Position numbers and translations under genes: made by a program. Positions 15,777 to 44,470 of a stretch of DNA of 64,000 bases are shown in pieces. Numbering within the stretch: position 1 is the first letter of the stretch; each line of letters opens with the position of its first letter. Source of the DNA: an uncultured delta proteobacterium. GTDB taxonomy: Bacteria; Desulfobacterota; WTBG01; CAIYCZ01. Location of the stretch: contig CAWDOY010000003.1 of NCBI GenBank assembly GCA_963803975.1, forward strand, positions 32,001 through 96,000. Direction: 5' to 3'. The notes beneath the pieces were generated by a model that worked only from the letters and a program-made list of their open reading frames with translations, had not been told where the DNA came from and did no database searches.

Positions 15777-17403
15777 TTACAAAATTCCCTTCTCTTTTGC
15801 CCGGGCAACACACTCAGGATCTTTCCACCATTTATTAATTCCCAGATCCTGGGCAATGGTATTAGCTGCAAGATACCCCGGGCCCCAGATCACGCAACCA
15901 CCAGGGTATACTGAAGAACCACCGACGTAGAGCTTTTTTACCGGAGTCTTATTGCGCGAGCAATCTTCGTTTGGCCTGAGGAAGCCCATCTGGAAGGGGA
16001 TGTAGGCTCCCTGTTTATATGAGCCCTCACGCATATCAGGAAATTTATTCTGCATATCAAGCGGGGTGCTGATATAGCTTTGGAGGACTTTATCCGCGGT
16101 GATATTTGGAGCATACTGCCTTAACACTGCAATAGCACTGTTCAGCAAGCTCCTGCTTGAATTTGAGGTTATACCACTTCTCCGGGCCCTCTTTGAGGTT
16201 ATACGGAGCCATCATGGAAAGCTGGCTTGAACACCTTCCCGGTGGCGCAAGCAGTGGATCGTGGACACTGGGGAAACAGGCATTAAAGCCAATGGTATCA
16301 CCCATCTCTGCGTTATACAGGGCATCAAAGTGCTTCACCAGCTCTTCCATGGTCTCATAGCCAAGCACATACACACAGGCCTTATTGATGTCGGGATTTT
16401 TTTCTGCCGCTTTAAAATTCGGCGGCTCGGATAATGCGCTGTGGACACCAAACAAGCTGTAGCTTTCCCACTTCCATTTCTGAATTTTACTGGCAAATGC
16501 TTCAGTTATGCCGCCCTTGTCCATCAGGTCAATAAATGTTTGAATGGGGTCAATGGTGCTCAGAACTGCCTGTGAGGCCTCATAAAAAATCCCGTTTTCC
16601 ATCTCCACGCCCTTTGCCTCACCATTTTGCACAACAATTTTCTTAATCATCTGGTTGTTTTTAACCAGGCCATGATTTTCATGGATTACTTTGTTGAGCG
16701 CCTGTGCAACCATATGGGAGCCGCCTCTGACCAGTTGATAATTATGGGCGCGATTCAGGTACAGCAGCACTAAATAACCGAGGTTAACCAAGTCGTACTT
16801 TACCCCCCAGTGGCAGGCAATATAAAGGAGAAGGGCGCGAATATGTTCATTTTCAAACGCATCTTTTATAATATCAATTGGCTTGCGCTCACTGTAAGAC
16901 ATCATCGTTTTGCCTATCTCAATCTTCTGCATGTGCACAATGGCGTCCAATGCTCCTACGGGAGGGATATAGGTGGCCGGGCCAATATAGTCATCAACAC
17001 AGCGCTTGGCCGTGTGATAAAATTCACGGTACGCATCCGCATCCTTTTGGGAAAATTGCGCAAATGATTTGCATGTTCGGTCTATGTCCTTATAGATGCA
17101 TACGCAGCGTCCATCTGAGAGCGGCATGGCAAATTGAAGATCGGGATACAGGTGGTGCACCTTGTAGTCTTCCTCAAGCCGGAAATCAGGATACACCGGA
17201 GCAAAATCCACCATCATCATATACACGGCATGAGTGCTGTGCAAAAAACCTGGAAGGGTTGACTCTTCTGTCCAGAGTCCTCCGCCGCATTCGTATCTGC
17301 GCTCAAGAACCAGAACCTTCAGCCCCGCCTTGCTGAGATATGCTCCCGCCTCAAGACCGTTGGGCCCAGCCCCAATTATGATAATATCATACTTGGTATC
17401 CAT
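15777..17403 (-). CDS. COG1233 phytoene-dehydrogenase-like FAD oxidoreductase, copy B (frameshift near 16140)
   Basis: IIIGAGPNGL, ERRYECGGG and PGFLH motifs. C-terminus TPVKKLYVGGSSVYPGG...GPGYLAA lies in ORF 15777..16148. Confidence 0.88.
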
Positions 17404-17486
17404 GGTATCTCCTTCTTACGCAGTTTATGGCCGCGACCATTACGTCGTGACATAAGCCCCTGCTATGCTCTGGTATCATTCAATGT

Positions 17487-19128
17487 TTAAAAGGGGTAGC
17501 CGTTCTTTTCCCAATGCTTTTCCAGATTATGCTCCTCGGCGATAACCTTAAAGCAGTTGTATGCCTGGGCATCCATTGCTCCTGCGCTGAAACCCCACGC
17601 AACACCGGTACAATAAAGGTTCTTTATGGGCGTTTTATACCGGGCCAGTTCCGGAACCGGTCGAAATTTTCCCGTTTGGCCAGGAATAACATCAATCACA
17701 CCCCAGTTCCCCTGGGGGCCCATATTTTTCAGACGCAGGCAGTCATACGGGGTGAGCGGGTCATAGCCGATGATGTTATCCCAATTCATATTAGGTGCAT
17801 ACTCCTGCCAGTATTTTAAAACATCTTCAGCGTTTTTCTTCTTATAATCCAGCCATTCCCGCTCCGACATCTGGTTGGCAGCAAGGACAAACTGCTCAGA
17901 CCCGGCAATATGCTTTCCCTTCGGCGCCTGGGTTGGATCGTCCTGGCTGAGGCACCATACCAGCAGTGCCGAATCAGAGGTATTTGCGGGCGGCATCTTG
18001 CCCAAAACCCGCCAGGCATTTTCCCGGACGAGTACTTCAGGGTCTTTTATACTCAGACGCCAGAAGACCGGTCCGGTGAATATCCTGTTGAAATGCCTCG
18101 GCAAGGTAGCGGGGCCGCTCATGGATGGCCCAATGGTACCAGGTAATACAAATTAATTTGCGGGAAAGGTGTTTCACCCTGCGGATTGTCCTCGGTTCAA
18201 AATATTCTTCTCCGGTTAATTGCAAACAGAGCTGTTCGGGCGACAGCGTGCTCACTACCAGCTTTTTAGCCTCAATTTCAGTGCCATCAACCAGACGAAT
18301 CCCCTTGGCAACGCCATTTTCTATGAGCACTTTATCAACCTCATGCTTGGTAAAACTTTTCCCCCCGTTTTCCAGATACACCTTGTGACAGGCGTGTGCG
18401 TAGCTGTGGGTTCCACCGACGACACCGCCAAATTGTATCAGAAGGGGCAGGAGCAGAAGCTGCGAGATGCCGGTGCCTGGCATCAGGGGTGAATAGGGCA
18501 TGCCGGCATGCGAGGGCCGGAGCACTGAGGTTACCACCTCATCAGATTCAAACAGGTCTCTCAGTACCTCAAGGGCTGATTTTACTCCCCAGATGGGATC
18601 AATGCCGAGAGCAGGGTCCATCAGGGTCTTTTCCATGGTATCCGGCTCGTAATGGGGAGGAGGCGGGTTATATATCCATTTGCAGAAAGCAGGCTCTATT
18701 TTCTCCTGCCATTTTTTCCATAGCTCCAGCCAGGTATCTGCATCCTTTTGTGAGAAGCGGGCTATTGAGGCAGCGGTCTTTTCCTGACTGGGATCACAGG
18801 CCGGGTTATACCAGGCAATACATGATTGATCCTCTTTGAAAATAGTTGCCATTGCAGGATTAAACGGAAACCACTGCCCTCCCTTTTCAATAAATTCAGG
18901 GAAGTCCCGCTCAAGCACTATTTTCCAGTACTTGTCTATATTCACCGCATGGGTATTGGTGATAAATCCCGGTGCAGCGCTCTCCTCGCAGGACCATCCG
19001 CCCCCCAGCTCGTGCCGGCAATCAAAAATACCAACACTCATGCCGGCATATTTAGTCAGATACATGCCGGTAATAAGTCCTTTATTGCCTCCCCCGATAA
19101 TAATTGCGTCAAAAGATTTATCAGCCAT
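17487..19128 (-). CDS. COG1233 phytoene-dehydrogenase-like FAD oxidoreductase, copy A (frameshift near 18060)
   Basis: IIIGGGNKGL, ELGGG and APGFITNTHA motifs. C-terminus YKTPIKNLYCTG...AYNC lies in ORF 17487..18122. Confidence 0.88.
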
Positions 19129-23648: not shown

Positions 23649-24098
23649 TTACCTGACAATGATCTTACCTTTGAACTCTTCTGTGCGAGAATAGGGGGTT
23701 GGTGATGGCCTCCTCACCGTATAATCGAATGTCCCCTTCTCGATAAAACAGAGGCTTGCCACCGCTCCCAAAGGAATTTTGTCAGAGATAAAGGAGCCCT
23801 GTGCATCCACCACGAAATGAACCGGCTTGTCGCAGGCAATGGTAACTTCCTTACCCGTAAACTGTATTTCCGCCATCTCCCGGGAGTAGTTCAGCCAGAT
23901 AACAGTGGTGCCGGAGTCAACGGTGACTGTCGGCGGGTTTATACCGGATATTGCTTGAAGAGAAATGACCTGATGGCCCTGAAGCTTTTTTTCAGGTATG
24001 ATCTTCCCCTCCTGGCTCCATGCAGTCGTCACCGTAACCAGGAAACTGCAAAAAATTCCTGTAACAAGTATGATCCTTAGATATGCTCGTTTTTTCAT
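23649..24098 (-). CDS. Secreted cupredoxin-fold protein lacking type-1 Cu ligands, paralog 1
   Basis: Signal peptide; PPTVTVDSGTTVIWLN and FIEKGTFDY...FKGKIIV; no C-x-x-H-x(n)-M loop. Confidence 0.7.
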   Translation of the reverse strand: MKKRAYLRIILVTGIFCSFLVTVTTAWSQEGKIIPEKKLQGHQVISLQAISGINPPTVTVDSGTTVIWLNYSREMAEIQFTGKEVTIACDKPVHFVVDAQGSFISDKIPLGAVASLCFIEKGTFDYTVRRPSPTPYSRTEEFKGKIIVR

Positions 24099-28591: not shown

Positions 28592-30316
28592 CTACTTCAT
28601 ACCGAATTTTATCGGCTCCATGCCGTTCATCTGCCGCAGTCCGTTAATAGCATCTGCCAACGGCTGGGGAACGTTTGCCAGCTCTTCTTCAGTGAACACA
28701 TAGCGGCCGGGAGCGCAGACATTATTCGGGTCCAGCACCTTCCTGAACTTTCTCAGAAGAAGATGCACATTGGGCCCCATCTCCGGGAAAAACGAGGTGA
28801 GCGGTTCAAGACTTGCTCCAAAACCGGTTACCCCTGGGCCGATCTTATCAGCCATTGACTTTCCGATGCCGAACATCATAAGCTGCTGGGCCTTCATCAG
28901 TGCCTGGGGATCCATGCCGTTGGGATAGACATCAGCTTCGGTCAAAAAACTCCTTCCGCACGGGTCGGCGGCATACATGAACGGGGTGTTATCTACTCCG
29001 CCGCGGTCAGTAATATACGTCTCGCCAATGGTATTAATTGCTTTTGTCCATAAATCCTGCGCTTCCCTGCCGATGTCAGGGTCACCGCAGCAGAACCAGG
29101 TGTCCAGATAATAAAACCGCGACATGCGGTAGCCGCACACGTGCCTGATGCAATCAAGGTTCCAGGGACTCAGGGCGGCAAGAACCTCAGGCTTGTATTC
29201 TGCCGATAGAAACGTACCTCCCAGTCGCTCTATGATTTTTCTCAGGACCTTTTCCTCGTAGTCAAGCTGCTTGTCCGCTACGTATGCGCCGCTGATGACA
29301 TAAATATTATAGGGAGGGAAAAAGTTTTCCTGTACCCGTTTAAGCGTCAGCTCCTGGGTCGCAGAACAGTAATATGCGTTATAAATGCCCGTGGCATTCA
29401 ATCCGATGCCGATTCCTGCGTGCGCCACATCCCGCAGCGCCTGTATCTCCGTTTCCATGTCGGGAAGCTCGATCCAGTGCAGGCGATAGTTCTGCGGCGG
29501 GTTGACCGTATCGTGCCGGTCGTCATAATAGGTTCTGATGCAGGGTCTTCCTGCTGCCGGCTCCGGCAGGATTTCTCCACCCGGCCATGGGTGCAGTTTT
29601 ACGGTTACCTCGGCTACAATTCCCGATGCCCCCGAACTCCCTCTGAACATGCTGTAGAGATCAGGGCCCGGAGCGTATTCATAAAAGTCGTCCACTCCTT
29701 CCACCGCCTGCGAGCCGGTTTTAAGAAGCTCACCATCGGGCAGCACCAGGGTAAACCCGACGATATTTTTACAGATGGTGCCGTACTTTTTGCTTGTTTG
29801 CCAGAGTCCGGCCAGAACCGCCTGTGATGATATCTTGCACAGAGATGTCGCCAGGGGCGTGCCGCCGTTCCAGAGCCCGCGCTTCATGGCCTCTGCCTGC
29901 ACCTGTCCGTAATCCACATAGGGCTGGACGCGCATGGTCATTGCGTCTTCATCTATTTCGATAATCTGATTCATTCTGCTGTAGTGGATACAAACAGTCG
30001 GGGCAGGCGTTGTGGGCATACAGGCAATGCCGAGCTGGCCGTTGGTCATTGAGATAAAAGGAACTTTATATTTGTTGGCAATCCGGACAACAGCCTGTAT
30101 CTCTTCTGTCGTTCCGGGCAAAATAATACAGGCAGGGATGTTGGAAGGATCTTTTGCGTGTTTTTTCAGGTATCCAATTATATCGATCCCGAACCTGCTG
30201 TAGGTTTCTATAACCGCACGGTCCTGGCTGATATAGTCTTTCCCTACAACAGCTTCAAGTTCTGCGTAGATTGCCGGAGGCAGACGGTTTGCCCTGACTG
30301 CTTTCTTTTCTTCCAT
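28592..30316 (-). CDS. FAD-binding oxidoreductase (VAO/PCMH/D-LDH superfamily), copy B
   Basis: PACIILPGTTEEIQAVVRIAN, RMNQIIEID, VLPDGELLKTG and LDPNNVCAPG motifs. Confidence 0.88.
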   Translation of the reverse strand: MEEKKAVRANRLPPAIYAELEAVVGKDYISQDRAVIETYSRFGIDIIGYLKKHAKDPSNIPACIILPGTTEEIQAVVRIANKYKVPFISMTNGQLGIACMPTTPAPTVCIHYSRMNQIIEIDEDAMTMRVQPYVDYGQVQAEAMKRGLWNGGTPLATSLCKISSQAVLAGLWQTSKKYGTICKNIVGFTLVLPDGELLKTGSQAVEGVDDFYEYAPGPDLYSMFRGSSGASGIVAEVTVKLHPWPGGEILPEPAAGRPCIRTYYDDRHDTVNPPQNYRLHWIELPDMETEIQALRDVAHAGIGIGLNATGIYNAYYCSATQELTLKRVQENFFPPYNIYVISGAYVADKQLDYEEKVLRKIIERLGGTFLSAEYKPEVLAALSPWNLDCIRHVCGYRMSRFYYLDTWFCCGDPDIGREAQDLWTKAINTIGETYITDRGGVDNTPFMYAADPCGRSFLTEADVYPNGMDPQALMKAQQLMMFGIGKSMADKIGPGVTGFGASLEPLTSFFPEMGPNVHLLLRKFRKVLDPNNVCAPGRYVFTEEELANVPQPLADAINGLRQMNGMEPIKFGMK

Positions 30317-30412
30317 AGTGCAACACCTTTGTCTTAAAATCCAGTTGTCAGCCGTCAGGAGTCAGAATCATTTCATTCTGATTTTCGGATTCTGTCTTCT
30401 GAATTCTGTAGT

Positions 30413-31879
30413 TTAAAACCCAAGCTTCCCCGGATTCAGTATCCCCTGTGGATCCATCTCCTTTTTGAGCTGCTTAAGCTTTGAGAAGTAGTGCGGCGCC
30501 TTGGCGTAAACCATTTCGGCCCAGTAGCCGTAGGGCCGGTCAAAAAGAGCCCCCTTATCCTGAAGCATCGAACTTGCTGATTGCCACAGTTTATAAACCT
30601 TGTCCCGCTCGCCGTCATCCGCGCCGCAGTGAAGATCGAGCTCACAGTGTATTGACCTGCCCCGTTCAATTATCGTAAAATAACCGCCAACGTCTTCCGG
30701 GGCATAGCCGGCTGCCCTGGCAGCAGCGGAAACTGCTGCTGCAAGCTCCGGCAGCTTTTTCAAAGGCGCCTTGAACGAAAGATCATGGACTGAACCCTTA
30801 TAATTGAATTTTCTTAAAACTCCCCATGGCCTGAGACTTTCCCTGAGAAAAACTTTTTCTATCTCAGGGAATGCGGGTAGTTCGGTAACTACACGCAAGC
30901 CCAGTTTTTGCCCCATAGCGTACAGCGACTCCTCCTGAATCTGCACCCATTCTTCCGGGAAGTGGGGGAACCCTGCCAGACCGATAACTATTGTCCAGGA
31001 CGGCAACAGCTGTTGTAACTGCTTAAACCTCTCAGATGGCGTGGCAGGAGCGGGGAACCCTCCGGGGATCTGCCACTCCTCATTAAGAAGGGCCGCCAGG
31101 TTAAAGCGATTGAGCGCAAAACACTCAAGCCCTATTTCCTTTCTCTGAATCTGCTTTAATGCCTCGGGGATGTCCTGTAAATTATCAAATGCTATAAAGA
31201 AGAACTTTCGCACAGAGGACAGGTGCTGCGCGCTTATAACCATTTTCGTAACAATGCCCAGCGTGCCCTGAGCTCCTGTCCAGAGCCGGTAGATTGTATT
31301 CAGGCCGGGACCGTAGAGGCCTCCCGGCCTGCCCCCGAGATTCCAGCAGCCGGTACGGAACAGCTCCCCATCGGGCAGTACCATCTCCGTGTCATGGGTG
31401 AGATAATTGCCAAGCTCCAGATGAGCTGCGGCCATCACCACATCCCGCTCCAGATAACTGGTCAAAACAGATCTTCCCGGGGGAATACCAAACGGCATCA
31501 TTACCCGCAGCCCCTTTTTCTCTAATGCGTCCTGCAGCTTTGCATAGGTCACCCCGGGCTCAATGATTACATACAGGTCTTTGTCATTTATCTCTATAAT
31601 GCTGTCCATGCCGGACATATCCAGCACTATTCCTCCATATGCAGGAATTGCGGCACCGTGCAGATTAAGGCCGGAGCTGAAAGGAGTAAGCGGGGTTTTG
31701 GTCCGGTTGGCAAGCCGCACAATCTCCTGTATTGCTGCTACACTCTGCGGCCGGACAATAACATCCGGGCGGCTGGCCTTTACAAAGCTCTGGTCAGCTG
31801 CATAGCGCTCTTTCAGGGCAGGGTCATCAAACACATTGCCAGAACCCGCAATCTGCTCAAGCTGTTTTATCAGGCTCAT
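30413..31879 (-). CDS. FAD-binding oxidoreductase (VAO/PCMH/D-LDH superfamily), copy A
   Basis: PDVIVRPQS, IEPGVTY, GAQGTLGIVT and MDPQGILNPGKL motifs. Confidence 0.88.
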   Translation of the reverse strand: MSLIKQLEQIAGSGNVFDDPALKERYAADQSFVKASRPDVIVRPQSVAAIQEIVRLANRTKTPLTPFSSGLNLHGAAIPAYGGIVLDMSGMDSIIEINDKDLYVIIEPGVTYAKLQDALEKKGLRVMMPFGIPPGRSVLTSYLERDVVMAAAHLELGNYLTHDTEMVLPDGELFRTGCWNLGGRPGGLYGPGLNTIYRLWTGAQGTLGIVTKMVISAQHLSSVRKFFFIAFDNLQDIPEALKQIQRKEIGLECFALNRFNLAALLNEEWQIPGGFPAPATPSERFKQLQQLLPSWTIVIGLAGFPHFPEEWVQIQEESLYAMGQKLGLRVVTELPAFPEIEKVFLRESLRPWGVLRKFNYKGSVHDLSFKAPLKKLPELAAAVSAAARAAGYAPEDVGGYFTIIERGRSIHCELDLHCGADDGERDKVYKLWQSASSMLQDKGALFDRPYGYWAEMVYAKAPHYFSKLKQLKKEMDPQGILNPGKLGF

Positions 31880-31977: not shown

Positions 31978-32103
31978 TATTCAGCTCTCGCTTCACTATG
32001 GACAGTACACGTCATTCGCTCAGGCCTGCTTCCCTATGCCGGTCATTCTTGAATAGTATTATTGCTCTACAATAATTTTTCCTTTGAATTCAGCTTCTGG
32101 CGA
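31978..32103. repeat. Direct repeat of about 125 bp, copy 2; contains a dead 5' stub of the GldF-like gene
   Basis: Matches 12125-12249. The stub reads MT/VLSIVKRELN with a 1-nt insertion, then diverges. Confidence 0.92.
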
Positions 32104-32521
32104 ACTTTTTCCGGGAGACAGCCTTTTTACGATATAATCAAATGCTCCTTTTTCGATAAAACAGATGCTTGCCACTGCCCCCAGGCCAATCTTATTAGAG
32201 ACAAATGACCCGTCCACATCAACCATAAAATTGACCGGACTCTGGCAGGACACGGTAATCTTCTTGTGCGGGAATAGAATCTCTATGAGGCTTTTTGATT
32301 CATTTACCCAGATCACCGTAGCCCCCGGCTTAACTGAGAGGCTGGGTGGTATGATCCCCCGGTCAGACTGAATCCGTATAACATGAGCTCCCGCAAGGTG
32401 CTTTTCCGGCATAACTTTTTCGTCCTGAGCCAAACTGCAGTCAATGGTAAAAGCAACAATTGAGATCAGCACTGCTGCAATGAACCAGATTTACTTTCAT
32501 CCCATAATGTTCATAATGCAT
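32059..32521 (-). CDS. Secreted cupredoxin-fold protein lacking Cu ligands, paralog 2 (frameshift near 32490)
   Basis: Clearly homologous to 23649..24098 (C..PV.F.VD..GSF.S.KI.LGAVAS.CFIEKG.FDY). AGGAGG RBS and ATG 32521 are out of frame with the body. Confidence 0.7.
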
Positions 32522-32764: not shown

Positions 32765-34166
32765 TTAATGAGCCTTGCTTGACAAGTACCTCAGGTTGAA
32801 GAGGTTTTCGCTCAAATTGGGCATATTGAGGGTAATGGTATGTGTTGCAATGGTTGCATGCTTGTTGATAACATCAATGATACAGGGGTTCCAGTAATCG
32901 AGCTCCCCGTTGTCCGGACTCCAGCGCCATGCCCAGTCCCAGTACCTTCCAGAGCCGGCCTTTCTGGTCATGCCAGAACATCTGCTGCATGGCAAAGGTT
33001 TCCTTGTCCACATACCAGGTGCGCATCTTGTAAATGTAGGATGGCTCATCATAGGTTATTTTTACCACCCAGACGGGACGGCGCTCCCACCAGTAACGCT
33101 GACTTCTTCCCCCATACTTTTCTTCATATTTAATGGGCCTGGGGTTAAAGGACGGGCAGAGCACCACCGCTTCTCCAAGCAGTTCATACTTTGCCGGGTG
33201 AATAGATACCTTGCTCCAGTATCCTTTCCAGTCCTCCCAGCTGATATCTGAGCCCACCAGCGGGTCCTGGGTGTTGCTTCCGGAGAGGCGCCGGATTCTG
33301 CGCATGGATGGTATATAGGTGACAAATGAGTCTTCTGCTTTGTCATCTTTATAGCGGGTCCGCACTGCTGCAAATCCGCGCAGGTCATACGGATAAAGAG
33401 CCACGATGGAACCTTTTTCATAGATGTCTTCAAAGCCGGGAATTACCGGAAACGGCGGGACCTTGATCCGGCCGACATAATTCTGCCAGTGGAGTTCAAT
33501 CTTTTCCTCCCGCTCCTGTTTCCCATTTCTTCCATAATAGCCGAATCCGAGCGGCATGGAATTCAGGTTATCACCCATGATGGTCAGCCGGTCATAGTTA
33601 TGAACTATCTCTATCGCTGTTTTAGGCTTGGGAAATGGTATGCCGGCAACCCAGCCCCGGAGAATATTTTTATCATCGACTGAGCTGGTGCCGGCATATT
33701 TTTTTGAAGCCTCCATGTATCCCCGGTCATTCCAGGCGTGGGTCGTGGGGACGATTACCATTTCCAGGGGGAAATAATTATAGCCTGCAAATAAACCGGT
33801 GCCCATCATACGGTCTACTTCCCAGTCAAATCCGTAGGGCAATAGTTCGCGCAGCTCTTTTTCATACTGCTTGACATTCTCGGGAGTTATGACCAGCCCC
33901 GGTTTGATGCTCGGCGCCTTGGTATCTTTGGCAACCATGTCAACCGCATTATATCCCAAAAATTCCTCCCACTCTTTGCCGAGCTTTATAGCTTCGGGAG
34001 TGCAGAGCCGTTCAGCCCATTCCTTGTATACCGGGTCGCCCTGCGTTGCAGCAAAGTCTTTCCATGGTTTGACCCATGATGGCAGCTCCTCAGCTCCTGC
34101 TGGAATAAACATCCCCAAAACAAGCAGGAGAGCTATAAAATGTAATTTCGTATGTTGCTTTGCCAT
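32765..34166 (-). CDS. DUF1329 periplasmic protein, paralog 2 (frameshift near 32945)
   Basis: GIPFPKPKTA, YIPSMRRIRR and DQKGRLWK motifs. C-terminus WDWAWRWSP...LRYLSSKAH is in another frame and matches paralog 3. Confidence 0.88.
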
Positions 34167-34181
34167 GACAGTCTCCTTTCC

Positions 34182-35854
34182 TTAAAATTGGTATTTCAAG
34201 CGCAGGTACACCTGAGCGTTTTTCTGAAACAGGCCGAACGATTTCCCGGTATCATGATCACCGTGAATATACATAACACCGAGTTCGGGTCTGAAGTGTG
34301 TACCATAGGCAAGGTCAATCTTGGTTTTTATGGCATAGCCATGCTCTTCGAAATCATACAGAAACAGGAGCTGCGGGACTATGCGTTTGTTGTCATACTG
34401 GGTATTGACCAGGAAGCTGAAATACTTCTGCGTCTTGTGGATGCGCCAGGGGTCAATCCGGTCACTATTGTACGATCCGGGAAGCGGCGGAAGCCGCGTC
34501 TTTGCTCACCTTCTCATTAAAATAGAACGGTGCGTTCACTAACTGGCCATCAAGCCCGAAAATATAGTACATGAAAAACTGGGCGCTGCAGAAGAACGAT
34601 TCACGTGAATTCAGGAACCTGAGATACACCGGCCAGTCAAGCCCAACCATGTACCGGAGCTGATCCTTGTCTTTTTTATAACCGGTTAAACCATATTTGG
34701 GATTGAGTCCGGTCCAGGCCATGTCGCCGATCCTTTTCCCTTCGTTCTGGAACGGCTTTTTGAATTCATACAGCGCCTCTACCCGCAGCACCGGAGCAGT
34801 TTGACCGCCCAGCTTAATCTGTGAAATTTCACGATTAACGGTAAACCCGACAATTCTTCGCGAGCCATAATACCTGTTAAAATTGAGGGTAAGAGCTGCC
34901 CGGTCCCACGGCGGAATGGTCAGGCTCGGGGATTTTGGTTTCAGGACAACATCCGGCTGGGTCCCATAGTAAAAATTTAAACGTAAACAGCCACTCATTC
35001 CAGTTGCCCATGATGCGCATGGCATACTCATTATTCCGTGCGCGTATCCCCTGGGGATGGGTATTATTCACATTAACGCGGGCAAGGTAGGGCAGGTTCG
35101 GCTCATTGGTTGCCCACACGCCACCATCAGCCTCATACAACTCAAGACGGTTCTGCTTTGGTTTGCCAGGGTTGAGAATGAACTCAATCTGCAAATCTCT
35201 AATGCAAAACGGTTCAATCCCCGGGAAATAGGTTGCCTTTAACAGCCACAGGGGGATGCGGGTGTATTCATACCCTTCATCAGAGTCTCTCAGCACCCAC
35301 TCCCGGCGCAGGTCCTGGGGATTGATGAAGTCCATGAGCCGCAGCCCGTCGCTTTCGCCCCAGACCACCTGTTGCCTGCCGATGCGGAAATTGACATGCT
35401 TGCTCTCGATATCAAAATAGAGCTCGCGGAAAAATTCCGCTCCCTGGTCGTTCTTCGTCCATTCCCAGGCGAGGTTGTTTCTGGCACGGGATTTCTGCGC
35501 GGGAGTGTTGTTTGCTTCTTGCCACCAGCGTTTACCACTTTGAATCTGGTAGGCAAGGTCGCCGAACAGTCTGTTTATTCCGTATAATGAAACGCCCTCT
35601 GAAATCTGATAGGTCCACTCAAGTTGCATGGTGCTGTAATCACTGACATTTTTACCGCCAAACTTGGGATCAAAGCCGATTGCAGCTTCCTGCATAAGGA
35701 AACCGTTAATACTGAACGGGCGGCAGAAAATCTGATAGGTATTAGTGCCGCTTGCCGGACCCGCACCGGTATCTGCCTTTTCCTTTGCTGCAGCAAACTG
35801 TAGGGGGAAAGCTATTACTATAAGAGCTACAACAGTAAACTTTAGTTTTTTCAT
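34182..35854 (-). CDS. DUF1302-like outer-membrane beta-barrel, paralog 2 (frameshifts near 34980 and 34495)
   Basis: Signal peptide; FRELY, RIGRQQVVWGESDGLRLMDFINPQD and C-terminal YLRLKYQF*. Confidence 0.82.
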
Positions 35855-35960: not shown

Positions 35961-38360
35961 TTAACTCGCTGTTTGAGATTCCTGGTTCAGTTCATCCAGA
36001 TGAGCATGCCTCCGGATGAATTTTGGTTTTAACCAGTTGATTGCAGCAGGGATAAAGAACAGCGCGCCCAACATATCGAAAAACATAAGAAATGCTATGA
36101 GAAGACCCATCTCTGCATTAAATCGCAGATCAGATATAGCCGGCCACAGAAGAAGCGGGATAATAATAGTGATTGCAGTGATAATCACTCCTTTCCCTGC
36201 AGAATTTAAAGAGGTATGAGTCATCATCCGCCAATCTCCGCGGGTGTTTTTAAACTCTTCTTCCATGCGGCTCAGCAAATAAATTCCATAGTCAACACCA
36301 ACGCCAAGACCGACCGCAGAAACCGGCAGCGTGTTGATGTCCAGCCCGATGTTTTTCAGTACCATATAGGCAAAGGCAACCATGTTGGCAACCAGCAGCG
36401 GCAGGCACAGGATGAGTGCCGCCACCATTGAGCGGTAGGCAATGCCGCAGAATACTACCACGGTAATAAACGCCAGGAGCAGCGTTCCTGTCTGCGACCA
36501 GACAATTTCTTCATTGGTTGCAGCCAGTACGCCACCGTACCCTCCGGCAAACCTGAATTGCACGCCCTCGATCTTCGGCTGGGTCTTGAAGAATTCCCTG
36601 GTTGAATTGATTACCTGCGTGAGGGTATCTCCCAGATGGTTTTTCAAAAAGACGCTGACAATGGTATGCTTGTAGTGCGGATCAACAATGGTCGTGTAGT
36701 CTCCCGGGTCACCGGCCATGCGATAGAAGAACATAAGCTGGCCGATGAGCTTCACGTCATCAGGAACAGCGAGGTAGCGGGCATCCCCCTCATGGAACTC
36801 TTTGTTCATCACCTTCACAATCTTGGTCAGGGACTGGGTGCCGCCGACGATATCCGGGTGCTTGTGGGTGATATAGCGCTCGTAGAGGTCAATCCGCTTC
36901 ATAACTTCAGGCTTCTCAACAGCTCCCTCCTCTCCCTCAACTATGACACTTATCATGTCGGTGCCGGCAGAATCAAACACCTTGTTGATCATCTCGCAGT
37001 CCTTGTTGTACTGGGAGTCAGGCCATAGAATAGGCGAGCCGGGATGGGTGTCGCCGATTTTAATCCCGGTTGAGATGTAGGTTGCACCCAGGCCGATAAT
37101 GATAACCACCAGCAGTATAATCCAGTTTAATCGGCCATAGGTCATTTCACCAATTTCATCAAGCCAGGTCCGTTTGGTTGCAACCGGTGCGTCTTTTTCC
37201 CAGGAAAATGCATACCGGTGCAGGTCTTTGGGCGTCGGCATGTAGGAACACAGTATCGGTCCCAGCACGCCGACAATGAGCAGGATGGAAAGAACCCAGA
37301 AGGAGCAGAGAAATGATATCTTCTGGATCATGGGGATGCGTGCCAGGATCAAAACTGAAAAACCTGCTGCGTCAGTAACAATGGCGGCAAGGCTGGCAAG
37401 AAATATTCCGTCTATTGTCGCTATGGCTGCTTTTGCTTTGTCACCGCAGACATTGAGCTCTTCCAGGTAGCGCCGGGTCACCTGCACCGAGTGGCTCAGC
37501 CCGCGGGCTCCCACCAGCACCGGCAAGACGATCATAAGGGGGTTGAAGTTCACGCCCAGAATTCCTATGAAGCCGAATCCCCAGATGGTGCACAATATGC
37601 CGGCAAACAGGGGAATGATCACACCCACAATGTTTCTGAAAATATAGATAACTGCTGCGATGATAAATAAAAATGTGACGCCGAATATGAGGTAGGTTTT
37701 CGGCATAAACTGGTAAATCCACCCGAGCAGCATGGGGCGGCCGGCAATGTGCAGCGTAGTATTATCATCCTCTTCCTTCTGCTTGAGGCCCTGTATGAAG
37801 TCAAAGAATTTGGTGTAATCGATATCCGGCCAGCAGTCAGCAATCATTAAGGTTGCCTTGCCATCCCGGGACACCATGAAACCGTTATATGCTTCATTGG
37901 TAAAAATGTTGTATTTCAAGCGCTCGATGCCCTCGGGCGTCTTATCAATCTCCGGCCACATCAACGCTGACACGTCAACCGTACCGCCCACGTGACCTTT
38001 CGCCACTTTGCTCTTGCGCTGGGCAATAGAGTACACAAAAGCGCGCCGGACATCCTTGTAAAACAGGATTTCATCGCTGACCCGCTTGATTTTTTCCAGG
38101 GTCTGGACATTAAAGATGTCACCATTTTTTACTTTCAACGCCACCATGACCGTGTTGCTGCCCCCGTATTGCTCCACATACTGCTTATAGAGCTTGATAA
38201 ACGGGTGCTGCGGAGGAATCATTTCTTCAAGGATTACCTCGACGCTCAAGCGTTTGGTAACCCCGTAAATGAAGACCACTGAACATATGCACATGATAAT
38301 CAGGATTATTTTATGATACCGGTAAAAAATTTCACCCAGCGTAGCCCGTTGTTTTGCCAT
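35961..38360 (-). CDS. MMPL/RND-family transporter, paralog 2
   Basis: PPQHPFI, YGGSN, PGSPILWPDSQYN and GLGVGVDYGIY motifs; AGGAGGAG RBS before ATG 38360. Confidence 0.92.
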   Translation of the reverse strand: MAKQRATLGEIFYRYHKIILIIMCICSVVFIYGVTKRLSVEVILEEMIPPQHPFIKLYKQYVEQYGGSNTVMVALKVKNGDIFNVQTLEKIKRVSDEILFYKDVRRAFVYSIAQRKSKVAKGHVGGTVDVSALMWPEIDKTPEGIERLKYNIFTNEAYNGFMVSRDGKATLMIADCWPDIDYTKFFDFIQGLKQKEEDDNTTLHIAGRPMLLGWIYQFMPKTYLIFGVTFLFIIAAVIYIFRNIVGVIIPLFAGILCTIWGFGFIGILGVNFNPLMIVLPVLVGARGLSHSVQVTRRYLEELNVCGDKAKAAIATIDGIFLASLAAIVTDAAGFSVLILARIPMIQKISFLCSFWVLSILLIVGVLGPILCSYMPTPKDLHRYAFSWEKDAPVATKRTWLDEIGEMTYGRLNWIILLVVIIIGLGATYISTGIKIGDTHPGSPILWPDSQYNKDCEMINKVFDSAGTDMISVIVEGEEGAVEKPEVMKRIDLYERYITHKHPDIVGGTQSLTKIVKVMNKEFHEGDARYLAVPDDVKLIGQLMFFYRMAGDPGDYTTIVDPHYKHTIVSVFLKNHLGDTLTQVINSTREFFKTQPKIEGVQFRFAGGYGGVLAATNEEIVWSQTGTLLLAFITVVVFCGIAYRSMVAALILCLPLLVANMVAFAYMVLKNIGLDINTLPVSAVGLGVGVDYGIYLLSRMEEEFKNTRGDWRMMTHTSLNSAGKGVIITAITIIIPLLLWPAISDLRFNAEMGLLIAFLMFFDMLGALFFIPAAINWLKPKFIRRHAHLDELNQESQTAS

Positions 38361-38390
38361 AGCTCCTCCTGTTCTGCCTGTCACGTAGCG

Positions 38391-39527
38391 TTAATTATTT
38401 GCCAGCACCATGTCGAACGGTTTTTCCGGATATTCCATCAGCTCCCATGAATACCCTCCGGTAGCAGCGCGCAGGACCATACCGTTTTCACCCACCGTGA
38501 TTGCTTCCTCTCCTGTTCTGGCAATGAATTTGACTTTATAAAGCCATTTATAATCAATATTTAATTTCATCTCGGTTGGCGACATCCAGTTCTGCAGATA
38601 CGGCTTTTTAAGAAAGGCATAATAGGCGATAATTCCCTGACCCACGGCAAAAGCGTCCTTGCGGATAATATCAGGGCCGCCCCGCCGGAACGTCACGCCA
38701 TAGTAGTGGGTTTTCTTATTGGGGGATTCTGCGATCCAGGTTTTACCGCCGTCAACAGTTTTCAGTATGGTAGCATCAAGCCCGGCAGCAAACCCGAAAT
38801 TCTGGTCATAAAATTCCACATCAAGCAGGGTATTCCCGGTGCCGCTTTTCAGCTTTTCCCAGGTCTTGCCCCCGTCGGCGGTTTTGATCACCGTGCCGTA
38901 CTCACCGACAGCCCAGCCCATCTGGGGATTCAGAAAATAGACGCTGTTGAGGGTGTAGACTTCTTCCTCAGCGCCAAAATTCTCCTTTACGACCTCACCT
39001 TCCTTGAGCTGGGAGATGTCCAGCTCCATGGGTTCGCCGCCGTGGACTTTCTCCCAGTTGCTCCCGCCATCCGTGCTGTGCAGAATGGTCTCATACTGGC
39101 CGACAATCCACCCTTCCTGGGGGGAAACAAATTTTACATCATTATATAAATAGCGCATGCCGGTTGACACCTTTTTCCAGCTTTTGCCGCCATCAGCGGT
39201 CCGCACTACTACCCCGCCATAGCCAACTGCCCAGGCAACGTCAGGGGAAACCGCGCATACCCCTACCAGGTCACTCCCAACGCCGCTGTTCTGGTAGTTC
39301 CATTTCTTGCCTCCGTCAGTTGAAGCAATGATTGTTCCGTACTGCCCAACTGCCCAGCCGCTGCTGTCATTGCAAAAAGATACTGCCAGGAGATGGTCAC
39401 GCAGGCGCCAGGTCTTCACTTCCTCCTCTTCCACGAGACCGGTTGTAATTTTCATATACCAGTAGCTCACCCCGACCACAGCAGCCATAAATATACAGAT
39501 TAGAATCACGCGCGTCCTGAAACTCAT
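38391..39527 (-). CDS. YCF48-like BNR-repeat protein, paralog 2 (N-terminal TM anchor)
   Basis: Repeated GWAVGxYGTxxxTxDGGxxW. Confidence 0.9.
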   Translation of the reverse strand: MSFRTRVILICIFMAAVVGVSYWYMKITTGLVEEEEVKTWRLRDHLLAVSFCNDSSGWAVGQYGTIIASTDGGKKWNYQNSGVGSDLVGVCAVSPDVAWAVGYGGVVVRTADGGKSWKKVSTGMRYLYNDVKFVSPQEGWIVGQYETILHSTDGGSNWEKVHGGEPMELDISQLKEGEVVKENFGAEEEVYTLNSVYFLNPQMGWAVGEYGTVIKTADGGKTWEKLKSGTGNTLLDVEFYDQNFGFAAGLDATILKTVDGGKTWIAESPNKKTHYYGVTFRRGGPDIIRKDAFAVGQGIIAYYAFLKKPYLQNWMSPTEMKLNIDYKWLYKVKFIARTGEEAITVGENGMVLRAATGGYSWELMEYPEKPFDMVLANN

Positions 39528-40192
39528 GCTGGTTCCTCCTTCCCGGTGGTTTACTGCAGATGAAAATGTAATATGGTGTAACGCTCAGTGTTTTGTGATT
39601 ACTGCTCAATACGGCGTATGTACTCCACTCATACTTCGGCATTGAGAAATCCGGATAATATTCGCGCACGATAATTCGCTGCGGCACAATTTTGATGAAA
39701 TAAAAAGCAGCAAGCGCCTGCTCCACTTTTTCCGTGAATTGCTTGGCTGTTAATCCCTTTCGTTCAATTTTTGCCAGCTTCTCAGTGCAGACATAGAGGT
39801 TCCATTTTTTAGCCTTGGTCTTGAACACGCGCGGATTGTTTTTCATGTTTATTAATTCAGCTTTGCCAAAAATCTGGAGACTTTTTTGCAGTTTATAATG
39901 GTCTAAGGGTTGTTGATAGATTGCTGCAGAAACGATAGGATTTCGCTTAATGTTTGCTATTTTAGTGCTTGGTTCGGCGAAGATATAAATGGTCAGACCC
40001 TCGTTGAAAAACTCCAGGGTAGTTGCGCGTGGTACATTGTTATGGCAGGTGGCAAGCACCAGGCAGTTTCTGTGGTGTGGTGCCGCAGGGGTATTTGTCT
40101 AAATTATTACTGGGCAGGCCGCAGGTTGATTTTAAAAATTCTAGTATCTCTTTTTTAACCCGCAGCTTTGATTTTTTCTTCGGTAGTAGCAT
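39397..40192 (-). CDS. Pyridoxamine 5'-phosphate oxidase-like FMN-binding split-barrel protein (frameshift near 40075; 3' end uncertain)
   Basis: VLATCHNNVPRATTLEFF, KIANIKRNPIVS and SLQIFGKAELI motifs. N-terminus MLLPKKK...KEILEFLK from ATG 40192 is in another frame. The tail overlapping YCF48 is probably spurious. Confidence 0.7.
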
Positions 40193-40347
40193 TGCTCACT
40201 TCCCCCTCTCGCCGGGATAAAAAGATTATCTGCAATAAAACAACGTTCATGTTGCGCATGGTTACATAAACTTATAGAGGCCCGTGCAACTGAAACCGGA
40301 GAGATGTCCCTGTGCCTTTTTCCTTTACTATAGGGATTTGAAATGTT

Positions 40348-40391
40348 AAATACGGCAAATGCCGTATTTGTAACATAAGGATACCGTATTT
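40348..40391. promoter_or_regulatory. Candidate NarL-family 7-2-7 binding site plus extra half-site in a divergent promoter
   Basis: Perfect AAATACGGCA-AA-TGCCGTATTT (40348-40369); second half-site TACCGTATTT (40382-40391). Confidence 0.65.
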
Positions 40392-40439: not shown

Positions 40440-41099
40440 ATGGCAGATAAAAAGCGCATCCTTATTGTGGAAGACCGTACTATCGTGAGGGAGGGTCTGC
40501 GCCTCCTGGTGACATCAGATGAACAGTACAGTATAGCAGGGGAAGCTGAGGACGGACATGCTGCAATAAAGGTCGCCAGGGAGTTGCAGCCGGACCTTAT
40601 TCTGATGGACCTGAGCATGCCCAGGATGAACGGGATGGATGCAATCAGGGAAATTAAAAAAGTCTGTCCTGCTATAAAAATTCTGGTGCTTACCGTACAT
40701 GATACAGACGAATTTATTATTGCCTCTCTTGAGGCAGGCGCTGACGGGTACATTCTGAAGGATGCCAATAAATCTGAGTTGATGCTGGCTATAAAGAGTG
40801 TCCTGGAAGGTAAACCGTTTTTAAGTCCCGGGATTTCAGAAAAAATAATCAGTGGCTACCTTTCCAGGCAGCGGCCGCAAAAACCAAAAACATCGCTGCA
40901 GGGGCTCACGCACCGCGAGCGCGAAATCCTTAAATTAATTGCCGAAGGCTATAAGAACAAAGCAATCGCTGAACTTCTTTGTATCAGTGCCAACACCGTG
41001 GAAAAACACCGGGAAAACATAATGCATAAGCTGGAGCTGCACAATGCGTCCGGTTTGACGTTATTTGCTATGGAGAATGGAATCATCATGAAAGTCTAA
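40440..41099 (+). CDS. NarL/LuxR-family response regulator
   Basis: REC domain (ILIVED, LMDLSMP, YILKD) and LuxR HTH (LTHREREILKLIAEG). Confidence 0.95.
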   Translation: MADKKRILIVEDRTIVREGLRLLVTSDEQYSIAGEAEDGHAAIKVARELQPDLILMDLSMPRMNGMDAIREIKKVCPAIKILVLTVHDTDEFIIASLEAGADGYILKDANKSELMLAIKSVLEGKPFLSPGISEKIISGYLSRQRPQKPKTSLQGLTHREREILKLIAEGYKNKAIAELLCISANTVEKHRENIMHKLELHNASGLTLFAMENGIIMKV

Positions 41100-42475
41100 A
41101 GCTTCCAGGTCGCACTGATGGTCGTTCCTTCTCCCTCGCCTGAATAGATTTCCAATCCCCCCCCGGACAATTCAACCCGCTCCCTCATGCTGATAAGCCC
41201 GAAGCCATTCTGTATGGTTGGATCAACACTCATGCCGGGCACATCAAACCCCCTGCCGTTATCTTCAACAGAAAGATTGATCCTGCTGTTATGCTGAGCC
41301 AAAGAAATAGTGATGTGATTAGCATTACTGTGTTTGGCTATATTGGTGAGCGACTCCTGCAATACCCGATAAATAACTATCTTTAAGTGATTGGGCACCA
41401 ATTCTTCACGTATGTTTATTTGTTGCTCTATTGCTATCCCGACATAGGTCTTCTGGTATTCTCGACAGAACCAGGAAATGGTTGCGATGATGCCCAGCTG
41501 GTCAATGCTGGCAGGACGCAGCGAAACTGATATTTTCCGCGCTTCCGACAGGGTGTTCTGGATGAGATGAACAACGCGGTTCAACGAAGCAAGGCTGTCG
41601 CTGGAATTGCCTTTTTCAATGAGATCCTGTGCATTCTCAACGCTGAACTTAATGGCAGTCAACCCCTGACCCACCTCATCGTGCAGCTCACGGGATATGC
41701 GCTGTCTCTCTTTTTCTCCTGCCTGCATTAATTGTGTCGAGAGAAACCGGAGACGTGCTGTTGATGCATTCAATGCCCGCTGGGTGAATATGATAAAGAA
41801 AATGGTAACAGCAAAGATGAGGCTTGCTGATACCCGGGCAACCATTATTATCTGCCTTGATTTGCGTTTGACAATGCTATCCAGTATCTGGATTGTATCA
41901 GTCAGCTCGGCAATAAAATAGCGGTTCAGAGAAGAGACCATGTATTCAATGTCAAAGGTCAAATCAAACAGCAGAATGTACTCCATGCTCTGGCCACGCC
42001 GCTCCATCTGATACATCAGCTCATGGAGCAGGCTTCGCTTCTCGGTCTGCGCTTTCTGATCTGCCTGGGTCAGGTATTCATCAAAACTGAACGTCACCGA
42101 CTCGATACGCGGCTTGATGATATACCAGAGATTCCCCGTGCCCTCGACTTTATTTTTCAGGTCTGCATTTATCTGCGTCAGATTTTTAACAATATCAGAC
42201 TGCATGAAGTCCTTAAGATCATGGTCAAATGTTGAGATTGAGCTTATCCAGCGCTGGCGGGCAAAAGAGAGATCATTGGCAATCAGCAAATCTTTAGTAG
42301 AGCTGACCAGATCATTCCAGGCTTTGAGCAGTTCATGTGCCTGGGTATTTTTTTGCGACAGCCGCTTTGTTTCAAAGTCATAGTACTCGAAAAGGCTGAT
42401 AATACTGCCAAAGCTCAGCAACAGCACAATAATGACTGATGAAGGCTTGGAAATAATGTGTGGCAGTCGTCTCAT
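41096..42475 (-). CDS. Sensor histidine kinase, HisKA_3 type, with periplasmic helical domain
   Basis: Two TM helices; ERQRISRELHDEVGQ, QESLTNIAKHS, EDNGRGF and GLISMRER motifs. Confidence 0.93.
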   Translation of the reverse strand: MRRLPHIISKPSSVIIVLLLSFGSIISLFEYYDFETKRLSQKNTQAHELLKAWNDLVSSTKDLLIANDLSFARQRWISSISTFDHDLKDFMQSDIVKNLTQINADLKNKVEGTGNLWYIIKPRIESVTFSFDEYLTQADQKAQTEKRSLLHELMYQMERRGQSMEYILLFDLTFDIEYMVSSLNRYFIAELTDTIQILDSIVKRKSRQIIMVARVSASLIFAVTIFFIIFTQRALNASTARLRFLSTQLMQAGEKERQRISRELHDEVGQGLTAIKFSVENAQDLIEKGNSSDSLASLNRVVHLIQNTLSEARKISVSLRPASIDQLGIIATISWFCREYQKTYVGIAIEQQINIREELVPNHLKIVIYRVLQESLTNIAKHSNANHITISLAQHNSRINLSVEDNGRGFDVPGMSVDPTIQNGFGLISMRERVELSGGGLEIYSGEGEGTTISATWKL

Positions 42476-42509
42476 AGTGCGGGGTATCTACAGTTCAGAA
42501 TCTTCTGTT

Positions 42510-43922
42510 TCAATGGCCCTTTTCCATCAGATAGCGTATGGTAAACAGGTCTTCGCTCAGGTTCGGCATATTAAGCATGATATGATGGTCAAAGATGCTG
42601 GTATGTTTATTAATGATATCCAGTATGAAGGGATTCCAGTAGTTCAGTTCTCCATTTGCCGGATTCCATCGCCAGCACCAGTCCCATAATTTCCACAGCC
42701 GCCCGTTCTGGTCATAAAACATCTCCTGCTGCAGCGCGAAGGTTTCCCTGTCAACATACCAGATACGGGTACCATACAAATACGATGACTCTTTGTAGGT
42801 AATTTTCACTACCCAGACCGGACGGCGCTCCCACCAGTATTGCTGGCACCAGCCACCATATTTTGCCTGGTACTTAATGGGCCGGGGATTGAAAGAAGGG
42901 CACAGCACTATTGCCTTCCCCAGCAGCTGATACTCTGCCGGGTGCGCTGATAGTTTACTCCAGTAGCCTTTCCAGTCCTCCCAGGAGGCATCAGAGCTCA
43001 CCAGCGGATCCTGGGTATTGCTTCCGGAAAGTCTCCGAATCCTGCGCATGGATGGAATATAGGAGATGAAAGAGTCTTCTGCCCCGGAATCTTTAAACCG
43101 GGTCCGCACCGCAGCATATCCTTTTAAATCATAGGGGTAGAGCGCGAGTATGGATCCTTTCTCATAGATTCCCTCAAATCCCGGTATGGTCGGAAAAGGA
43201 TCCAGTTTGATGCGCCCCGCATAGTTCTGCCAGTGAAGTTCGATTTTTTCGACGCGCTCGCGTTTTCCATCCCTGCCGTACAGGCCGATGGACATGGGCA
43301 TGGAATTAAGATTATCTCCCATGACCGTGAGTCTATCATAATTATGAACAATATCGATTGCAGTGGCAGGAAACGGAAACGGAATCCCTGCCACCCATCC
43401 TTCCAGTTCACCCTTTTGATTGGTTCTGCAGGAGGCTGAGTATCTCTTCGTTGCTTCCAGAAAGCCACGGTCATTCCAGGCATGGGTGGTGGGAACTATT
43501 ATCATCTCCAGCGGGCTGAAATTATAATTCGTAAAAGTTCCGGTGCCGGTCAGCCGGTCCACTTCCCAGTCAAAGCCGAAAGGGAAAAGCTCCCGCAGCT
43601 CTTTTTCATATTTCGCAATATTTGCCGGGGTAATGACCAGTCCCGGCTTGATGTGCGGGGCTTTTGTATCTTTTGCCACAAGATCAACGGCATTATATCC
43701 CAGAAAGTCCTCCCACTCTTTACCCAGCCTTATTGCTTCAGGGGTACTGAGTGTCTCAGCCCACTCGATGAAGACCGGGTCTTTTGACGCATTCGCCCAC
43801 GTGCGCCACTGCTGTACCCAGTGCGGATATTGATTTTCAGAATCCTGAGCATCGAGCGGTGCAATAAAACAGAGTGTAATAATGCAGGCAGCTATACAAT
43901 GGTTAAAATATTTATTGATCAC
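42510..43922 (-). CDS. DUF1329 periplasmic protein, paralog 3
   Basis: Signal peptide; collinear with and very similar to paralog 2; 34-nt gap to the kinase gene. Confidence 0.88.
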   Translation of the reverse strand: MINKYFNHCIAACIITLCFIAPLDAQDSENQYPHWVQQWRTWANASKDPVFIEWAETLSTPEAIRLGKEWEDFLGYNAVDLVAKDTKAPHIKPGLVITPANIAKYEKELRELFPFGFDWEVDRLTGTGTFTNYNFSPLEMIIVPTTHAWNDRGFLEATKRYSASCRTNQKGELEGWVAGIPFPFPATAIDIVHNYDRLTVMGDNLNSMPMSIGLYGRDGKRERVEKIELHWQNYAGRIKLDPFPTIPGFEGIYEKGSILALYPYDLKGYAAVRTRFKDSGAEDSFISYIPSMRRIRRLSGSNTQDPLVSSDASWEDWKGYWSKLSAHPAEYQLLGKAIVLCPSFNPRPIKYQAKYGGWCQQYWWERRPVWVVKITYKESSYLYGTRIWYVDRETFALQQEMFYDQNGRLWKLWDWCWRWNPANGELNYWNPFILDIINKHTSIFDHHIMLNMPNLSEDLFTIRYLMEKGH

Positions 43923-44470
43923 CGTTAATCCCCCTGACTGTATGGTACTGTGAGAGCACCATTTACACAGGTCAAAAGATATTTTAGCTACGAGCTGTGG
44001 ACCCCGTCTTTATGTTTATTGTATGTGGGACTGGCCAAACAGGGCAATATATTTATCAAGAGGGGAAGAGTCATCCGGGCGAGACCTGGTGCGCTATGGA
44101 GTAAGAAAAGCTTCCCTCTCTCATTATCTCCCGCAGTCCAAATATATTGGACTGTACTGAACAAGTCAAGTCAAGTTACGGAAAACACCCGCTCCGTTTC
44201 TGCTGTAAAAAAAATTATCAATTATCCTTGTTTCGCCATTAATAAAAAAGAAAATTCGCTGGTCCCTGCAAACAGGAAAGATATAATGTATATTGATAAA
44301 AATACCTATCACCAACGAAATGAAACAATAGAAGTATCCGGGAAAAGCAAATTAATTTTGCTGCTCGTAAGTAATGAGTGACGTTTTTTCCATTGGACAG
44401 GGATTAGCAATCATGTTAAAGATTTTGCAGAAAAAACGAATCCCTAACGTTGATTCACTCCTCTCTGCCC

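Follow-up and report, generated by a model that had tools for sequence, protein, structure and literature searches.

What is an extra copy of a transporter's carrier gene doing directly in front of a histidine kinase? The question arises in a 64,000-nucleotide stretch from an uncultured delta proteobacterium (contig CAWDOY010000003.1, positions 32,001 to 96,000), hereafter the window, which is part of contig C3 of a 4.25-Mb genome that is 98% complete. The genome holds 14 loci for DUF1329 proteins, nearly all of them within modules of DUF1302, BNR and RND genes. Of the three copies that lie in the window, paralog 1 belongs to module 1 and paralog 2 to module 2, and paralog 3 (470 aa, 42510..43922, minus strand) stands alone. 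Paralog 3 is followed on the same strand, after a gap of 34 nt, by a sensor kinase gene (459 aa, 41096..42475). The kinase stop is overlapped by 4 nt by a convergent gene for a NarL/FixJ-type response regulator (40440..41099, plus strand), which is divergent from module 2. The initial annotation had read this arrangement as a three-component circuit, in which paralog 3 acts as co-sensor of the kinase and the system induces its own importer. The coordinates agree with its description of a DUF1329 gene outside the transport operon, 34 nt upstream of a HisKA_3 kinase, and of a NarL regulator divergent from module 2. In a crude BLAST screen of the genome, a kinase-like open reading frame lay within 5 kb of only one of the 14 DUF1329 loci, that of paralog 3.

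We propose that paralog 3 is the receptor of a circuit that runs through the kinase and the regulator to module 2, a reading to which we assign a probability of roughly 0.57. Paralog 3, made constitutively, would sit on the periplasmic four-helix bundle of the kinase as its likely ligand receptor. Cargo entering the periplasm would bind in the pocket of paralog 3 and the bundle would shift, His265 would hand its phosphate to Asp57 of the regulator, and the phosphorylated regulator would bind a palindrome and induce the module-2 transporter. It is likely that the kinase senses ligand through paralog 3. We infer that this ligand is the same hydrophobic cargo as that of paralog 2, and that the regulator activates rather than represses module 2.

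The interface foreseen between paralog 3 and the kinase was indeed predicted. A co-fold of the sensor domain (residues 31-212) with mature paralog 3 reached an interaction prediction score from aligned errors (ipSAE) of 0.70 (0.78, 0.70 and 0.62), while the best of three controls gave 0.00. The ipSAE mark is reached by 116 of 157 solved pairs and by 2 of 215 mismatched ones, a calibration that holds only roughly for own alignments such as those used here. The runs agreed in at least 86% of contacts, and the predicted local distance difference test (pLDDT) score of the partner was at least 89, compared with 39.6 for the single chain modelled from 13 alignment rows. Since a sequence search found no solved structure related to the sensor, and the DUF1329 profile matches in the PDB (9tp6, 3bk5 and 4z48) are all LolA-superfamily proteins without a complex partner, it is unlikely that the model remembered a similar complex. 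The predicted docking face of paralog 3 comprises residues 208-211, 220-228, 261-262, 347-353 and 445-454, and that of the kinase helices 3 and 4 (112-133 and 162-190). Because the contacts alternate along three strands (209/211, 224/226/228 and 445/447/449), they probably form one face of the LolA-like sheet. Paralog 3 would thus dock side-on, with one sheet face on sensor helices 3-4 and the opposite, pocket face left free, as judged from residue alternation and not from coordinates. According to this model, paralog 3 very probably binds the sensor domain of the kinase.

Conservation points to the same surfaces. In tests that ignore kinship, on alignment columns that the co-fold model also saw, the sensor interface was more conserved than the remaining columns (0.74 vs 0.59, permutation p 0.007). 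In 12 distant relatives the conserved interface columns were kept at 0.29, compared with 0.51 for other conserved columns, and five of the ten were kept in at most 8% of these relatives. On the side of DUF1329, D445 and S211, which headed a ranking of class-separating columns drawn up before any view of the fold, both belong to the 23 interface positions out of 438 (about 0.003 by hand). In the module copies conservation drops from 0.80 elsewhere to 0.63 at the interface, a drop that the sensor-linked copies do not share (0.75 elsewhere, 0.72 at the interface; p 0.006). Paralog 2 differs from paralog 3 at 7 of the 13 closest-contact positions, including V224, which is replaced by Glu. Outside the interface paralog 3 and the carrier share 75% identity (311/415), and the inferred pocket-face positions 210, 212 and 259 carry conservative changes only.

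Paralog 3 has an N-terminal signal-peptide-like segment and a LolA-like C-terminal half. It passes the curated Pfam cut-offs of DUF1329 (PF07044, 109.9 bits vs 23.1) and LolA_like (PF17131, 53.6 vs 30), and Pfam assigned it to these two families only and to no classical solute-binding-protein family. Its identity to the module-2 carrier, put at about 70% by the initial annotation and far above that to paralog 1, measured 71.4% over 405 aa, against 26% over 342 aa for paralog 1; it rose to 74% when the carrier came from a near-identical strain in which the gene is intact. In a tree without outgroups, 14 sensor-linked copies, hybrids included, fell on one side of a branch and 11 others on the opposite side, with a Shimodaira-Hasegawa-like approximate likelihood ratio test (SH-aLRT) value of 90. 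With outgroups the same split had a value of 70 and the module copies became paraphyletic. Sisterhood of paralogs 2 and 3 of this genome was rejected by the approximately unbiased test (p-AU 3.7e-6), which rules out a recent duplication of the genome's own paralog 2; the duplication is therefore older than the two families. The ratio of nonsynonymous to synonymous substitution rates (dN/dS) of paralog 3 was 0.13 against a close strain and below 0.05 at saturated distances. That paralog 3 is a pseudogene was ruled out. As judged from their sequences, the sensor-linked copies are a separately maintained lineage under purifying selection. Within the subfamily we also came across a DUF1329 gene (L082:1931-3331, and the whole of L083) whose first 400 nt resemble the carrier and the remainder paralog 3, and which connects the end of the module to the kinase. 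L083 ends in a 121-nt terminal repeat. Recombination between the two direct paralogs may have excised a circle or built a tandem repeat here, or else gene conversion led to a loop in the assembly. Another genome (G003; L068/L016, G003:C60) has a module 2 with two tandem carrier copies, and in G024 a single subfamily of DUF1329 accounts for at least 23 copies.

The kinase has the periplasmic helical domain ascribed to it by the initial annotation. Its two hydrophobic segments, TM1 and TM2 (from residues 11 and 212), bracket an all-helical four-helix domain (about 33-208, model pLDDT 84), which is followed by HisKA_3 with its His (His265) and HATPase_c; no HAMP match was found by Pfam. The regulator consists of REC, with Asp57 and Lys107, and a GerE helix-turn-helix. 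Both proteins score under the cut-offs of every named NCBIfam equivalog. Foldseek gave no match to the sensor domain at E 0.001, and its VIA structural matches were generic bundles with Z 9-13, within the range of generic bundles. The PilJ profile matched 5 of 21 sensor members (best E 6e-5), and the Atlas lead was CHASE3 at 0.94 with 143 shared features. The wider sensor family comprises about 80 clusters (P0044-P0119) on HisKA, HisKA_3, Hpt-containing and PAS-STAS proteins, and no Pfam family covers it well.

Restriction of the DUF1329-kinase adjacency to this genome had been set in advance as a ground for abandoning the co-sensor idea; we found the adjacency to be conserved in the order. 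Full-length kinase orthologues (43-70%) were present in 8 of 40 relatives, seven of them with DUF1329 directly upstream. A sensor-only profile detected 12 loci in 11 of the 21 genomes of the order, and at 11 of these loci a DUF1329 gene stands directly upstream. The metagenomes yielded 15 sensor loci, several of them near-copies of the genomes, and all 13 with upstream DNA had DUF1329 there. Three of the 12 genome loci encode PAS-HisKA-REC hybrid kinases, each preceded by DUF1329, as is a similar metagenome locus (L091). The pair was also found away from the module (G018, G008:C49 and L086). Among the nine genomes with the HisKA_3 form of the kinase, eight show the regulator converging on it (the contig ends in the ninth), and in seven module 2 is divergent from the regulator (in the other two the contig ends). 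This DUF1329 subfamily occurs in 12 of the 21 genomes, among them all 11 that bear the sensor. In G005 the module is present without sensor, extra copy, regulator or operator. No sensor match was found at 8 loci of the sister DUF1329 subfamily, and neither a sensor-profile nor a kinase match within 1.5 kb (short flanks) of 30 other DUF1329-family loci. By eye, the start of a downstream gene at one of the 30 resembles a Ser/Thr kinase. Outside the order, 400 sampled genomes of the phylum yielded no sensor; a wider profile gave one weak match (E 5e-6) with no adjoining DUF1329, and a single-protein scan of a species collection returned two loci only. At the G008:C49 hybrid (L042:2859-6928), the docking motif is altered at several otherwise invariant positions and the DUF1329 partner at 211, 449 and 450, which reflects either co-variation or decay. 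Two further DUF1329 modules of the genome from which the window comes (G000:C24:5909-7203 and G000:C36:28634-29901) have a NarL-type regulator and a kinase just upstream, without this sensor domain.

How would the signal reach module 2? Between the regulator and the module lies a perfect palindrome (40348..40369) with the core TACGGCA-nn-TGCCGTA, arranged 7-2-7 like NarL sites (PMC9314961; here and below, papers are cited for the part of their text that was available). The motif AATACG-N8-CGTATT was present between regulator and module in 11 of 11 loci, exactly in nine and with one mismatch in two (0-2 of 300 shuffles each). In 10 of the 11 loci an additional half-site stands 22 nt from the palindrome, in the window on the regulator side (40384..40391, minus strand, read from the flanks). 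The palindrome is the only match in the window and the best site of the genome, at 32.6 bits against 18.9 for the next, with a matrix built from these sites. It was not found before the regulator-less module of G005, nor at five hybrid or relocated loci, where the best sites had 2-3 mismatches. Taken together, this candidate palindrome is highly likely to be the site of the regulator, which would control module 2. Since a -10-like hexamer (40327..40332, minus strand; seen by eye and missed by the consensus scan) faces module 2 15 nt downstream of the palindrome, activation is suggested. The regulator could possibly control itself through the same palindrome. A sigma-70-like promoter (10/12) lies about 220 nt upstream of paralog 3 (44141..44169, minus strand); the consensus scan that detected it returned 13 sites, compared with 7.1 in shuffles. 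No operator was found near it in the window scan, and this plain promoter-like site gives a weak hint that paralog 3 and the kinase may be expressed constitutively. RNA contigs from one study span parts of paralog 3, the kinase and module 2 and are uninformative on level, strand and co-transcription.

By analogy, the wiring would be that known from CuaDSR and XylFII-LytS, and the LolA-like partner and the RND module would be new. The kinase of the CuaD-CuaS-CuaR system of Ruminiclostridium cellulolyticum shares its constitutive operon, distinct from that of the transporter, with an additional binding protein; the latter attaches to the sensor and thereby induces the neighbouring transporter operon, where another binding protein is encoded (PMC10384115). 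Likewise, at 11 of 12 genome loci here the kinase gene has a periplasmic binding-protein gene for a neighbour, in addition to the one that belongs to the transporter. Unlike CuaD, which is described as a classical sugar solute-binding protein linked to an ABC importer, the partner here is a DUF1329/LolA-like protein in a two-membrane bacterium, and the transporter is a DUF1302-DUF1329-BNR-RND module. In XylFII-LytS of Clostridium beijerinckii, which induces the xylFGH transporter, LytS has a single four-helix bundle that is bound sideways (PMC8050422); paralog 3 is predicted to dock in a similar way. TorT-TorS, LuxP-LuxQ and ChvE-VirA share with XylFII-LytS an accessory protein on the sensor domain of a kinase, and the partners in all four have solute-binding-protein folds; LolA is not mentioned in the available part of this review (PMC8050422). 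Therefore, the locus falls outside the CuaDSR/XylFII-LytS group on partner fold and on transporter type, which is RND and not ABC importer. A LolA-like precedent is RseB/MucB, a periplasmic half-barrel that senses lipid and controls a membrane signalling protein. It acts, however, on an anti-sigma factor, which is thereby freed for proteolysis in an envelope stress response, and it is not a duplicated transporter subunit (PMC7400510), whereas the linked gene and modelled partner of paralog 3 is a histidine kinase. The module itself matches AmeABCD and Pseudomonas putida PP_0765/0766/2018/2019, which have the same four parts (DUF1302, DUF1329, BNR and HAE3-like RND) and hydrophobic substrates (PMC6394551, PMC10866462). 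For these, the available text describes a one-component LuxR-type regulator, PP_0767, and no extra DUF1329 with a kinase. In the open-access literature, supplements excluded, we found no DUF1329 or LolA-like protein as a kinase partner, in line with the initial annotation, which knew of no co-sensor role for DUF1329.

Several observations weigh against a dedicated ligand receptor and have to be set against the other explanations of the locus. Paralog 3 might bind the kinase and yet report the condition of the transport machinery or of the envelope and not cargo: the sensor would compete for it with the DUF1302 barrel or the RND pump, or it would serve as a constitutive brake. The same co-fold and operator evidence fits this explanation, DUF1329 is predicted to bind DUF1302 and RND (PMC13499233, PMC10866462), and module mutants are pleiotropic in some bacteria (bioRxiv 072470). 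However, the high identity outside the interface and the conservative changes on the pocket face are expected if ligand binding was retained, and some pairs have no module beside them; we consider this explanation unlikely, with some weight left to it. Alternatively, any copy of the subfamily may dock, so that the carrier of the transporter suffices and paralog 3 is only a constitutive pool. G012 (L021, G012:C129; 96% complete) has the regulator, the operator and a kinase whose docking motif is intact, and its sole copy of the DUF1329 subfamily is that of the module; no extra copy was found upstream of the kinase or elsewhere in G012 (a remnant before the kinase was ruled out, best E 0.46). 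Module copies of family f2 retain most interface residues (R221, V224, K226 and H447), the co-fold score also passes close cousins (10 of 12 colicin pairs), and L082/L083 suggest sequence exchange between the paralogs. On the other hand, the genome's own carrier has changed at its closest contacts and the module copies are relaxed at the interface, and what holds for G012 could fail in this genome. We regard this lack of a dedicated receptor as quite improbable.

Paralog 3 may also share no more than a transcript with the kinase and serve as a spare or priming carrier, in which case the four-helix bundle would bind ligand itself and the docking model would be a false pass. Four-helix sensors are able to bind small ligands directly, and the fold of this one is as close to the ligand-binding bundles McpS, NarQ and McpN as to the partner-binding LytS, QseE and TorS. 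Since all loci come from one order, they probably share one origin and are not independent events, and this single origin could account for all the synteny; the rough calibration of the co-fold for own alignments is a further point in favour. Against a spare carrier stand the rarity of false passes among mismatched pairs, the persistence of the pair through transmitter swaps and relocation, and the coincidence of conserved sensor surface residues with the modelled interface, which together leave it distinctly unlikely. The receptor reading is also weakened by a second column ranking with weak interface enrichment (p 0.024 to 0.15; 2 of the top 5, p 0.024, and 3 of the top 20, p 0.08). The sensor-linked clade is not strongly supported; an earlier tree gave 83/92 for 11 of 12 copies, one of them labelled by synteny only. 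Finally, the 10 kb that follow the L086 pair contain no match to the regulator.

If paralog 3 does act as the ligand receptor of the kinase, co-sensing by kinases would extend from classical solute-binding proteins to LolA-like carriers, and two-membrane bacteria could sense poorly soluble compounds in the periplasm. The role of DUF1329 is disputed, with hydrolase, export chaperone and carrier under discussion. That a copy is reused as a receptor would in itself speak for cargo binding by DUF1329, and the circuit would be the cleanest handle yet on this family, its four parts (paralog 3, kinase, regulator and 22-bp operator) being portable as a ligand reporter. We lean slightly towards a broader view, in which DUF1329 LolA-like proteins would be a new class of hydrophobic-ligand receptors for histidine kinases, the carrier and its four-helix docking domain forming a portable unit that is joined to varied transmitters and induces its own trans-envelope transporter.

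Module 2 is an AmeABCD-type cassette with DUF1302, DUF1329, BNR and RND genes together, all on the minus strand. Its first gene encodes a PNPOx-like protein (39615..40192; frameshifted here, 191 aa in the near-identical strain), followed by a BNR/YCF48 beta-propeller (38391..39527, Pfam), an MMPL/HAE3-like RND transporter (35961..38384, Pfam and NCBIfam), the DUF1302 outer-membrane barrel (34183..35854, two 1-nt insertions, 3' end approximate; 556 aa intact in L077) and paralog 2 (32765..34166, 1-nt insertion at 32943, 3' end approximate; 466 aa intact in L077). Since the three genes disrupted by 1-nt insertions are intact in the 98%-identical strain and four of the five insertions are absent from contigs of other runs, the insertions, which the initial annotation does not mention, are probably assembly errors, and lineage-wide decay was ruled out on the same grounds. 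Two desaturase-like FAD oxidoreductase genes (16090-19128 of the window) seem frameshifted in the same way, and many such breaks occur in the assembly.

Of the circuit as first proposed, the adjacency, the predicted interface and the conserved operator before module 2 speak for a three-component system that induces its own transporter, while import is not established because the literature on the direction of transport is split. AmeABCD of Castellaniella defragrans was interpreted as an exporter (PMC6394551). P. putida PP_0765/0766/2018/2019 were required for growth on fatty esters (bioRxiv 2020.07.04.188060) and modelled as a transport system (PMC10866462), and cell-wall export has also been proposed for the module (bioRxiv 072470).

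The neighbours in the window are FAD oxidoreductase, desaturase-like, SDR, AOR and UbiD genes, and their Pfam and NCBIfam assignments name no ligand. The best clue to the module substrate is a pair of FAD_binding_4 oxidoreductase genes that travels with the module (28592-31879 of the window, L090:13126-17614 and L091:17031-20288); in L090, a gene for an Fe-S subunit stands between the two. Small secreted-looking proteins without Pfam or NCBIfam match are encoded at 23649-24098 and 32059-32472 of the window. They recur in or beside many modules and are possibly a fifth module component.

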